Part shown: piece by piece, positions 1,365 to 3,204 of the stretch
Position numbering within the stretch: position 1 is the stretch's first letter
How the letters are laid out: each line of letters opens with the position of its first letter
Source: Candidatus Nealsonbacteria bacterium
GTDB taxonomy: Bacteria; Patescibacteriota; Minisyncoccia; Minisyncoccales; JAGMDC01
Direction: 5' to 3'
NCBI GenBank assembly: GCA_030643485.1
Contig: DAOWLG010000038.1
Coordinates: forward strand, 1 to 58,424
Length of the DNA stretch: 58,424 nucleotides
Program-made: the position numbers and the translations under genes
Notes under the pieces: generated by a model
Databases searched by the model: none
The model's input: only the letters and a program-made list of their open reading frames with translations
What the model was told of the DNA's origin: nothing

Positions 1365-1392
1365 TTGACAGATTTTGTGAGATTGCTACAAT
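1365..1392 (+). promoter_or_regulatory. Sigma70-like promoter for the riboswitch transcript
   Basis: TTGACA (1365-1370), 16-nt spacer, TACAAT (1387-1392). Confidence 0.45.
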
Positions 1393-1414
1393 AAATAAAA
1401 GCGATAATTGAATA

Positions 1415-1532
1415 TGCGGTTTATCAAGAGTGGCGGTTAGAGTTCTGGCTCAACAATCCGCCCAGCAACCCTTCAAAATGATTCTTTGAAGAAGGTGCTA
1501 AATCCAGCCCCACACGGGGAGAGATAAAAGGT
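1415..1532 (+). promoter_or_regulatory. SAM-I (S-box) riboswitch aptamer
   Basis: TTATCAAGAGTGGCGG...CTGGCTC...CAGCAACC...GGTGCTAAATCCAGC...GAGAGATAAAA matches the conserved S-box blocks. P1 is TTTATC (1420-1425) paired with GATAAA (1522-1527). Confidence 0.8.
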
Positions 1533-1546
1533 CGATTTTTTATTTT

Positions 1547-1575
1547 ACTCTTTCTCTCGGGAAAGAGTTTTATTT
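1547..1575 (+). terminator. Riboswitch expression-platform terminator
   Basis: ACTCTTTC (1547-1554), loop TCTCGG, GAAAGAGT (1561-1568), followed by TTTTATTT. The 5' arm is partly complementary to the 3' P1 strand GAGAGATAAAAG (anti-terminator logic). Confidence 0.7.
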
Positions 1576-1581
1576 ATTATT

Positions 1582-1755
1582 ATGAAAACATCAATAAAAA
1601 ATTTTCAAAACAAAACAAGGCAATCTCAATCAAAAGAAAAAAAGCGAACATTACTTTCCCAGAAGAAAAAGAATACGGGGAAATTTTGGGACGATTTGGA
1701 GGAGGTGCAGGGGGAAGAAGGGACAGTTTTCGTTATCCCGTTTCGTCAGAAATAA
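1582..1755 (+). CDS. Small protein (57 aa), paralog 1, downstream of the SAM riboswitch
   Basis: ATG 1582, TAA 1753-1755. Shares the KNTGKFWDDL..QGEE.T..VIPF block with ORF 1836-2159. Substitutions between the two copies are rich in synonymous changes in this frame. Confidence 0.55.
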   Translation: MKTSIKNFQNKTRQSQSKEKKRTLLSQKKKNTGKFWDDLEEVQGEEGTVFVIPFRQK

Positions 1756-1835
1756 AAATAGAACCAAAGCCGCAAAAGCAGGTCAAATTAGCCTATTTGA
1801 CTTGGAAACATTTAATACTAAATACATAAAAAAGT

Positions 1836-2159
1836 ATGAAAAAGTTAATAACACTTATATCTACGAAGGGGAAATCAAAGGAACAGATAAAATCGGAGAT
1901 ATTAAAGCAATTACAGGAGAAAGGGTTTTTGAAACCAAAGCAGGAAAAGAATACGGGGAAGTTTTGGGAAGATTTGACAGAAGAGCAGGGGGAAGAGGAT
2001 ACGATAGTAGTAATTCCTTTTTTAAGAAATGAAAAGAAGCAAAGCCCGCAGAAAGAACCGAAAAATTCTGAGAGCGTAAAGGAATCACAGGAGAATACGG
2101 AAAGAAGATGTTTTCAGATTATAGGATACCCACGAGCAAAAAAGAAATCGGAGAAATAG
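1836..2159 (+). CDS. Small protein (107 aa), paralog 2
   Basis: Contains KNTGKFWEDLTEEQGEEDTIVVIPF (1947-2021), homologous to 1669-1743. Lys/Glu-rich tail. Confidence 0.55.
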   Translation: MKKLITLISTKGKSKEQIKSEILKQLQEKGFLKPKQEKNTGKFWEDLTEEQGEEDTIVVIPFLRNEKKQSPQKEPKNSESVKESQENTERRCFQIIGYPRAKKKSEK

Positions 2160-2339: not shown

Positions 2340-2475
2340 TTTTGCTGGGTTTGGGCGGTTGCCTCGCAAGGCAACCGCCTTTTCAGTCCCGCGTCGGCGG
2401 TTGCCTCTTTCCTGCGGTCGTTCTCGTTCTCGGAAGCGGTCTCGTTCGTCGTCGTTCGTCGTCGTGGTCGGCGGA
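2340..2475 (+). ncRNA. GC-rich structured island of unknown class (candidate small RNA or relic)
   Basis: Sharp local G+C rise in an AT-rich intergenic region. The motif GGCGGTTGCC occurs twice. Overlapping ORFs on both strands are low-complexity and not credible. No SRP, RNase P, tmRNA or 6S motif recognised. Confidence 0.25.
2354..2383 (+). terminator. Strong hairpin plus T-run (intrinsic-terminator-like)
   Basis: GGCGGTTGCC (2354-2363), loop TCGCAA, GGCAACCGCC (2370-2379), then TTTT. Confidence 0.5.
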
Positions 2476-2594: not shown

Positions 2595-3068
2595 ATGCCT
2601 ACAAAAATTGAAATTTTTAATCAAACACAATTAAAAAAGGATTTGCCTGATATTCGTCCCGGCGACACTGTTCAGGTTTATCAAAAAATGCCTGCTTCTA
2701 TTGCAAGCAAAAAAGAAAAAGAAAAGGGCAAAGAAAAAATCCAGATATTTGAGGGCTTGGTTTTGGCGCGCAAGCACGGAAAAGGAGCCCCCGCAACTAT
2801 TACAGTAAGACGGGTAGTCTCTGGAATCGGAGTGGAAAAAATCTTTCCAATACATTCGCCTTTAATTGAAAAAATAGAAATAACAAAAAGGGCAAAAGTG
2901 CGCCGCGCAAAACTTTATTATCTAAGAGCCGTAAAAGGTAAAAAAGCGCGATTAAAAAGAAAAGAATTTACTCCAACAGCGCCTAAAAAAGCGCGGGAAG
3001 AAAAGATTGAAGAAAAACCGGAAAAGAAAGCGGAAGAAAAAAGCGAAAATAGCGCCCAGGTGATGTAA
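2595..3068 (+). CDS. rplS: 50S ribosomal protein L19 with a Lys/Glu-rich C-terminal extension
   Basis: L19 core blocks: PGDTVQV, IQIFEGLVLARKHGKG, ITVRRVVSGIGVEKIFPIHSP, EKIEI. The last 15 nt overlap tRNA-Leu. Confidence 0.95.
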   Translation: MPTKIEIFNQTQLKKDLPDIRPGDTVQVYQKMPASIASKKEKEKGKEKIQIFEGLVLARKHGKGAPATITVRRVVSGIGVEKIFPIHSPLIEKIEITKRAKVRRAKLYYLRAVKGKKARLKRKEFTPTAPKKAREEKIEEKPEKKAEEKSENSAQVM

Positions 3069-3136
3069 TTGGTAACCATAGCGGCTTGAGGGGCCGTGCC
3101 CGCAAGGGCGTGTGGGTTCAAGTCCCACCCTGGGCA
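3054..3136 (+). tRNA. tRNA-Leu (anticodon GAG), class II with long variable arm
   Basis: Acceptor GCCCAGG/CCTGGGC. Anticodon stem GCGGC/GCCGT with loop TTGAGGG. Variable arm GCCC-GCAA-GGGC. T arm GTGGG-TTCAAGT-CCCAC. Discriminator A. Confidence 0.9.
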
Positions 3137-3204
3137 CATAAATTTTTGCTATTGCAAAAATTTATTCCAAACTACAAATTACACACACAAATTACATAAT
3201 TTCA

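Follow-up and report, generated by a model that had tools for sequence, protein, structure and literature searches.

Few RNA switches are as well understood as the SAM-I riboswitches, whose regulon is taken to be that of sulfur, methionine and SAM metabolism. In the stretch of DNA from Candidatus Nealsonbacteria bacterium analysed here (58,424 nucleotides, henceforth the window), a SAM switch persists in an organism apparently unable to make SAM and stands before a conserved, unannotated mini-protein gene. This raises the question of which SAM the switch reports on and what the small protein under its control might do.

The SAM-I leader and its predicted switching

The first-pass annotation had placed a SAM-I riboswitch at positions 1420-1527, and a cmscan of the whole window supports this assignment with slightly wider borders: RF00162 matches 1418-1530 above threshold (57.3 bits, gathering score 44.4 bits, E 1.2e-10). 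The alignment spans the full model (positions 1-108), and the match is the only riboswitch in the window as well as the only RF00162 match in the 765-kb, 85%-complete genome. P1 (UUAUC...GAUAA) is matched by the covariance model, J1/2 reads AAGAG, P3 carries GCAACC/GGUGCUAA and P4 is present; the core segments UUAUCAAGAG, CAGCAACC and GGUGCUAA are identical to the upper-case consensus of the ligand-contacting parts (P1, J1/2 and the P3 internal loop). Both pseudoknot partners are there (CUGG in the P2 loop and CCAG in J3/4) and could pair. The 3' strand of the K-turn in P2 is CAA in the covariance-model alignment, where the RF00162 consensus has UGA. From six related leaders, RNAalifold predicts P2, P3, P4 and the terminator, and 11 of the 32 predicted pairs have changes on both sides, i.e. 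are compensatory.

The elements previously proposed around the aptamer, namely a promoter, a terminator and an alternative pairing of the terminator 5' arm with the 3' strand of P1, were all recovered (Table 1). The duplex between 1516-1525 and 1547-1558 has a predicted energy of -12.1 kcal/mol and is the best fold of 1490-1558 when the terminator 3' arm is omitted; this pairing of GGGGAGAGAU with the terminator 5' arm is a classical S-box antiterminator. The terminator stem ends 14 nt and its T-rich tail 1 nt before the start codon of ORF1. Judged by sequence and folding, 1418-1530 is a canonical SAM-I aptamer with an intact transcription-attenuation platform, and SAM binding as well as SAM-dependent termination are predicted. 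At high SAM, P1 would form, followed by the terminator, and transcription would stop before ORF1; at low SAM, the P4/P1 3' strand would pair with the terminator 5' arm and ORF1-ORF2 would be transcribed; their translation would do without a Shine-Dalgarno sequence, which is the rule in this genome. Only 14% of its long ORFs are preceded by a Shine-Dalgarno core, and the lack of this sequence at ORF1 and ORF2 is thus no argument against their translation.

Table 1. Features of the leader and the ORFs in the window, and loci of the A-domain family and of LOOT RNA in the sequences compared
Feature	Position or locus	Strand	Remarks
Sigma-70-type promoter TTGACA-16-TACAAT, TG before -10	1365-1392	+	11/12 matches
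Second -10-like box GATAAT	1403-1408	+	Aligns with TACAAT -10 box of G086, G441 and G125 leaders
SAM-I (S-box) aptamer with P1-P4	1418-1530	+	RF00162 cmscan, alignment to covariance model
Antiterminator strand GGGGAGAGAU	1516-1525	+	3' half of P4 and start of P1 3' strand; pairs with 1547-1558 if P1 is unformed
Intrinsic terminator, 9-bp stem (1547-1568) and T-rich tail	1547-1580	+	Terminator scan, folding; compensatory changes in related leaders
ORF1, 57 aa	1582-1755	+	ORF2 paralogue; A-domain degenerate, B block intact (KNTGKFWDDLEEVQGEEGTVFVIPF), tail cut by stop codons
Duplicated block, copy 1	1661-1743	+	Copy 2 at 1939-2021, 76% identical DNA
ORF2, 107 aa	1836-2159	+	A-domain 1836-1940 (residues 1-35), B block 1947-2021, C motif CFQIIGYPRAKKK 2109-2147
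10-bp G+C hairpin, then TTTT	2354-2383	+	Upstream of rplS (2595-3068)
A-domain gene, SAM-I riboswitch directly upstream	This window; L037 (44.2 bits); L038 (61.2 bits); G223		RF00162 scan
A-domain gene directly after metK	L040/L042 (P0004)		Riboswitch-metK operon
A-domain fused to MetK N-terminus	G274 (P0012); P0013		Behind weak-scoring SAM-I aptamer and 47-aa ORF
LOOT RNA	L043:1009-1122; L046:1902-2020; L048:52-175; L058:288-408; L060:1526-1645		RF03000

Spermidine-sensing variants of SAM-I, in which J1/2 and the P3 internal loop are changed, stand before polyamine genes (Salvail et al. 2023, PMC10853860). They resemble the window leader in having a SAM-I scaffold before genes outside SAM and sulfur metabolism and in being transcription-termination off switches, and it was their atypical gene association that revealed them (PMC10853860); the off-consensus K-turn strand would also fit an altered ligand in the window. 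However, exactly the J1/2 and P3-loop nucleotides that are changed in the spermidine variants have the SAM-I consensus here, the cargo is unrelated to polyamines, and closely related aptamers precede metK. It is very unlikely that the leader senses an altered ligand, that it acts after termination as a small RNA in trans, or that its transcript mainly serves rplS (discussed below).

The host genome and the surroundings of the switch

No methionine or SAM gene follows the switch, as had been noted from the sequence, and metK is absent from this assembly and from its seven family relatives: the gene is found in 0/8 genomes of the GTDB family, seven of which are 91-100% complete, and in 20/61 genomes of the order. 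With 85% completeness, metK of this organism could sit in the missing part of the genome; the absence throughout the family means that its members must obtain SAM externally. None of the seven relatives (G001-G007) has a SAM-I riboswitch, and this genome is the sole carrier in its GTDB family. In a lineage without metK, the switch would have to report on externally obtained SAM, and we infer that SAM shortage induces ORF1-ORF2 and that the SAM sensed in this metK-less cell is imported from outside.

In five of the seven family relatives, the gene order is ftsH, a pseudouridine-synthase-like gene, rplS and tRNA-Leu. Here, the sequence upstream of rplS is a non-syntenic stretch of 2.6 kb at the contig end, which contains a HEPN-like gene, a gene for a zinc-ribbon membrane protein, the riboswitch cassette and a GC-rich island; from this arrangement, the cassette was probably acquired or reshuffled. 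The gene rplS is on the same strand, 435 nt downstream, which would suit a transcript made mainly for rplS. Against such a transcript, a strong hairpin with TTTT separates ORF2 from rplS, rplS has an extended -10 box of its own (TGgTAGAAT), and rplS of the family relatives follows the pseudouridine-synthase-like gene without any such leader. The hairpin (2354-2383) is possibly the end of the ORF1-ORF2 transcript; it is missing from the terminator scan because its T run has only 4 T.

The hairpin, with a perfect 10-bp stem, is part of a region (2261-2475) whose sequence occurs once in the genome and in which it follows a 19-nt long-range inverted repeat (2261-2279 / 2336-2354); a second copy of GGCGGTTGCCTC at 2396 and CGT-rich runs are also present. 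The GC-rich repeat GGCGGTTGCC is found genome-wide at this site only. The region may be the terminator of the ORF1-ORF2 transcript or a separate small RNA. Further downstream, ARAGORN predicts a tRNA-Leu(GAG) at 3054-3137 that overlaps the last codons of rplS (end at 3068); this tRNA is absent from the Rfam scan at the gathering threshold.

Tandem paralogues and the A-domain family

Both ORFs that had been annotated behind the terminator (57 aa and 107 aa) exist as described, and the codon counts given for their shared block, including the listed codon pairs, are exact on recount: between 1669-1743 and 1947-2021, 13 codons differ, of which 7 are synonymous in the proposed frame, while the numbers for the other two frames are 0/14 and 1/13. 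Of the mismatches between the two block copies, 12/20 fall on third codon positions (binomial P = 0.013). Nei-Gojobori estimates for the B block (pN 0.15, pS 0.66, omega about 0.1 in frame, omega >1 in both other frames) agree with the purifying selection that had been proposed for this frame. The similarity covers ORF2 residues 17-77 and runs beyond the TAA and TAG stops of ORF1, indicating that ORF1 is a truncated copy. The N-terminus of ORF1 can still be aligned to that of ORF2 (the A-domain, see below), but the hydrophobic strand and the GK are lost (QS replaces GK); the start contexts of ORF1 and of the A-domain gene in L037 share about 90% identity. The comparison shows, at the level of sequence, that a tandem duplication gave rise to ORF1 and ORF2, whose shared block has been kept as protein. 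ORF1 reads as the duplicate in which the A-domain has decayed, the B block was kept and the tail was truncated. ORF2 is a real protein-coding gene with a predicted product.

The first ~35 residues of ORF2 (MKKLITLISTKGK[ST]KEQ...), which we named the A-domain, define by sequence a previously undescribed family of mini-proteins. The feature of this domain is the N-terminal pattern M-K-x-x-I-x-h-h-x-[ST]-x-G-K-[ST]-x-[EK], after which comes an amphipathic helix; M1, K2, I5, G12 and K13 do not vary among nine members, and position 14 is occupied by S or T. Against the family profile, ORF2 reaches 69-71 bits, while ORF1 has no A-domain signature.

Profile searches with the peptides, suggested by the first-pass annotation, did return homologues of ORF2, several of which follow a SAM-I riboswitch, neighbour metK or form part of it, and the annotated gene is therefore one with conserved relatives. 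The family is not easily found: a word-indexed homologue search with ORF2 alone returned only ORF2 itself, and the relatives required an exhaustive phmmer search of 1.8 billion representatives. This search identified four small homologues of 38-71 aa that have the N-terminus in common, one of which (P0003) also shares the C-terminal FQIIGYPRAKKK motif with ORF2. Four further members came from a profile search and others from scans of genomes and metagenomes; the alignment of four members, used as query for related loci, returned only 2 + 3 loci. Only 2/401 genomes of this genome's own class carry the family. Members range from 34 to 110 aa, some consisting of just 34-38 aa, and their C-terminal tails are highly variable. 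Among A-domain orthologues, synonymous sites are saturated (pS 0.7-1.0) and pN is low (0.16-0.27 for the closer relatives), so that the A-domain is conserved as protein and not as RNA.

The AlphaFold model of ORF2 is confident only for residues 1-30, in which residues 4-7 form a strand and residues 15-29 a helix (pLDDT 77-88); the A-domain is thus modelled as a short strand, the invariant GK[ST] and an amphipathic helix. A Foldseek search of this model against the PDB gave zero structural matches, and a sequence profile search of the PDB only marginal ones, to the N-terminus of uS10 (E 0.11). In the curated libraries Pfam, NCBIfam, PHROGs and PADLOC, ORF1 has zero matches and the best matches of ORF2 are below threshold (E 0.02-0.12). 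A reading of GK[ST] as Walker A/P-loop was rejected: in an anchored profile comparison, the A-domain scored -28.6 against 42 Walker segments of the genome and -21.3 against 112 unrelated GK[ST] sites, i.e. it is less like Walker segments than like random GK[ST] sites.

In the phmmer search, ORF2 was also matched by two secreted repeat proteins with type IX secretion sorting domains (P0002, E 4e-7; P0007, E 1e-3). ORF2 residues 3-53 are colinear with the repeats of these proteins, (G)ATxEDIxxAVxxxLxEWGI...FWDDLTEEQ, which match the LTXXQ/Metal_resist profiles; the likeness stems either from distant kinship or from charged helices that have converged. Membership of ORF2 in the LTXXQ/CpxP-Spy-like family (PF07813) was rejected, the FW(E/D)DLTEEQ block having no PF07813 match.

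Neighbourhoods of the family and the role of the switch

The A-domain family is strongly enriched beside SAM-I riboswitches and MetK, including fusions to the MetK N-terminus. Among the ~18 independent loci of the family census, four come immediately after a SAM-I riboswitch, one comes after metK, two are MetK fusions and ~11 have no riboswitch (Table 1). A sample of 401 genomes of the phylum contains four solid A-domain matches, three of which are ≤700 nt downstream of the only riboswitch of their genome (chance expectation for 3/4 co-location about 4e-11). The first-pass interpretation is supported in every part that could be checked, including the statement that no methionine or SAM gene follows here, and can be refined in that the family is physically linked to MetK elsewhere.

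A parallel is G223, where the family gene, an ordinary ATG ORF, lies 165 nt downstream of the riboswitch; alternative genetic codes (4 and 25) were considered for this locus and are unnecessary. Its metK is not behind a riboswitch but 21 kb away from the only RF00162 match of the genome, indicating that the switch serves the mini-protein and not metK. In G060, which belongs to the same order as the window, the first ORF after a similar terminator resembles the B block of ORF1 (E 1e-4) and is cut at the contig end; metK of this genome is 5'-truncated at the start of another contig. A resemblance to the B block in a protein of G404 was not significant.

The pairing in G223, with metK still present elsewhere in the genome, also bears on whether the riboswitch in the window is an orphan of metK loss and ORF1 and ORF2 are decaying, functionless leftovers. 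The absence of metK from the genome and its GTDB family and the state of ORF1, with its degenerate A-domain and a tail cut by stops, would fit such a relic. However, all three leader elements (aptamer, promoter and terminator) are intact, purifying selection acts on both copies of the B block and ORF2 retains all three modules; together with G223, this makes a relic very unlikely.

The ~11/18 loci without riboswitch have integrases, DNA methylase/Mrr fusions, helicases, MORC-like/AAA_13 genes or toxin-antitoxin pairs as neighbours. The family is thus not dedicated to SAM control and is also carried on mobile or defence islands. At five unrelated loci, a LOOT RNA (RF03000, 80-94 bits) is located 0.9-2.2 kb upstream of the A-domain gene on the same strand, and these five loci contain integrase, restriction-modification, MORC-like or AAA_13 genes; LOOT may be a marker of a Patescibacteria mobile element that carries the A-domain family. 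Literature searches on SAM riboswitches in Patescibacteria/candidate phyla radiation and on LOOT RNA returned nothing relevant.

Cargo other than metK is not restricted to the A-domain. Of 34 Patescibacteria SAM-I leaders examined, 25 precede metK and 9, including the one in the window, precede something else. The first-pass annotation had called the pairing of switch and cargo unusual; the cargo is indeed small and not metK, but such pairings recur in Patescibacteria and the window is not unique. The leader of G086, a genome of the same order without metK, is 83% identical to the window leader and is followed by a gene for a 142-aa protein. At seven loci with other cargo (L014 of G125, L020 of G086, L030 of G330, L021 of G441, L024 of G424, L036 of G217 and L012 of G352), the switch is followed in three genomes by members of a 142-150-aa family (NFPLxVLFM...TALYEPDF), and the other cargo consists of an HD-domain protein and three unrelated small proteins; metK is present elsewhere in four of these genomes (G125, G330, G441 and G352) and absent from G086, G424 and G217. 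The 93-aa cargo of G352, which appears similar to ORF2 by eye (VLLIPF), is unrelated (E 21).

Near-identical leaders with different cargo, such as the 142-aa protein of G086 and HD-domain or other unknown proteins elsewhere, could mean that promoter, aptamer and terminator form a generic SAM-gated slot into which unrelated small genes are swapped. The A-domain would then be a mini-protein of mobile elements, for example a nucleic-acid-binding or anti-defence factor, and not specific for MetK or SAM. The highly variable C-terminal tails of the family and its location, at most loci, near integrases, restriction-modification genes, MORC-like/AAA_13 genes and LOOT RNA are consistent with this. It is not easily reconciled with the fusions to the MetK N-terminus in two organisms, with the family gene directly after metK and with a co-location with riboswitches far beyond chance, and we consider a generic slot quite improbable.

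We regard it as probable that a classical SAM off switch operates at this locus, reporting on imported SAM and switching on a MetK-linked mini-protein when SAM runs short. The function of the protein is a separate matter: the MetK fusion and the gene order hint at an A-domain that acts on MetK or together with it; the occurrence of the family on mobile elements and in genomes without metK hints at a wider target in SAM economy or at a role that has nothing to do with SAM. In this genome, a role as MetK partner is inapplicable, as MetK is absent. Tentatively, the A-domain protein could be an effector of SAM shortage that acts on or with MetK where this enzyme is present and on another SAM-dependent step in metK-less cells. 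It is a bolder and rather unlikely proposal that the A-domain is a portable peptide for MetK docking or SAM economy, made only at a SAM shortage sensed by the riboswitch, welded to MetK in one clade and used by mobile elements to act on the methyl-donor supply of the host and, through it, on restriction-modification; in metK-less episymbionts, switch and peptide would then be sensor and effector for the loss of host-supplied SAM.

The only functional clues to the mini-protein are its repeated location behind the same switch, its adjacency to metK and its fusion to MetK. These make it a testable candidate player in the SAM homeostasis of host-dependent ultra-small bacteria and offer one way into a family of 34-110-aa proteins overlooked by gene callers and databases. 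The variety of cargo supports the view that the SAM switch of Patescibacteria is a general signal of methyl-donor shortage.

A precedent for a small protein tied to MetK and SAM supply is the SAM lyase of phage T3, which forms heteropolymers with E. coli MetK. Like the A-domain, it is found on mobile elements near restriction-modification genes; however, the A-domain has no similarity to it in sequence or fold, and the link to MetK consists of gene fusion, gene order and shared regulation alone. The S-box leaders of Bacillota (metK, yitJ and met/cys genes; RF00162) have the same four-way-junction aptamer and core, the same competition between terminator and antiterminator, the same transcriptional off switch and likewise a single leader before an operon. 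In contrast to these, the leader in the window precedes genes for two mini-proteins without a known connection to sulfur or methionine metabolism, its host lacks a SAM synthetase, the 3' strand of the K-turn departs from the consensus, and the start codon follows the terminator stem after 14 nt without a Shine-Dalgarno sequence. Further counterparts are the metK leaders of Patescibacteria (25/34), which have the same type of aptamer and the same platform (GGUCGAUUUUUUAUUU ... CUCUUUC ... GAAAGAG UUUU); leaders from this order reach 83% identity. Here, genes for A-domain mini-proteins take the place of metK, while one clade has the A-domain fused to the MetK N-terminus.

In the AF2 model of this fusion, MetK has a pLDDT of 90.7 and the helix of the A-domain is confident (residues 16-39), while its strand is disordered. 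The extension is absent from G208, a near relative of the fusion clade. The SAM-I aptamers of the clade (L054 of G274 and L071:67-1840) score just 25-31 bits and apparently have an extra hairpin; downstream of them come a leader of ~400 nt, a conserved 47-aa ORF (MYLTEKEKQEI...) and finally the gene for MetK with its A-domain extension.
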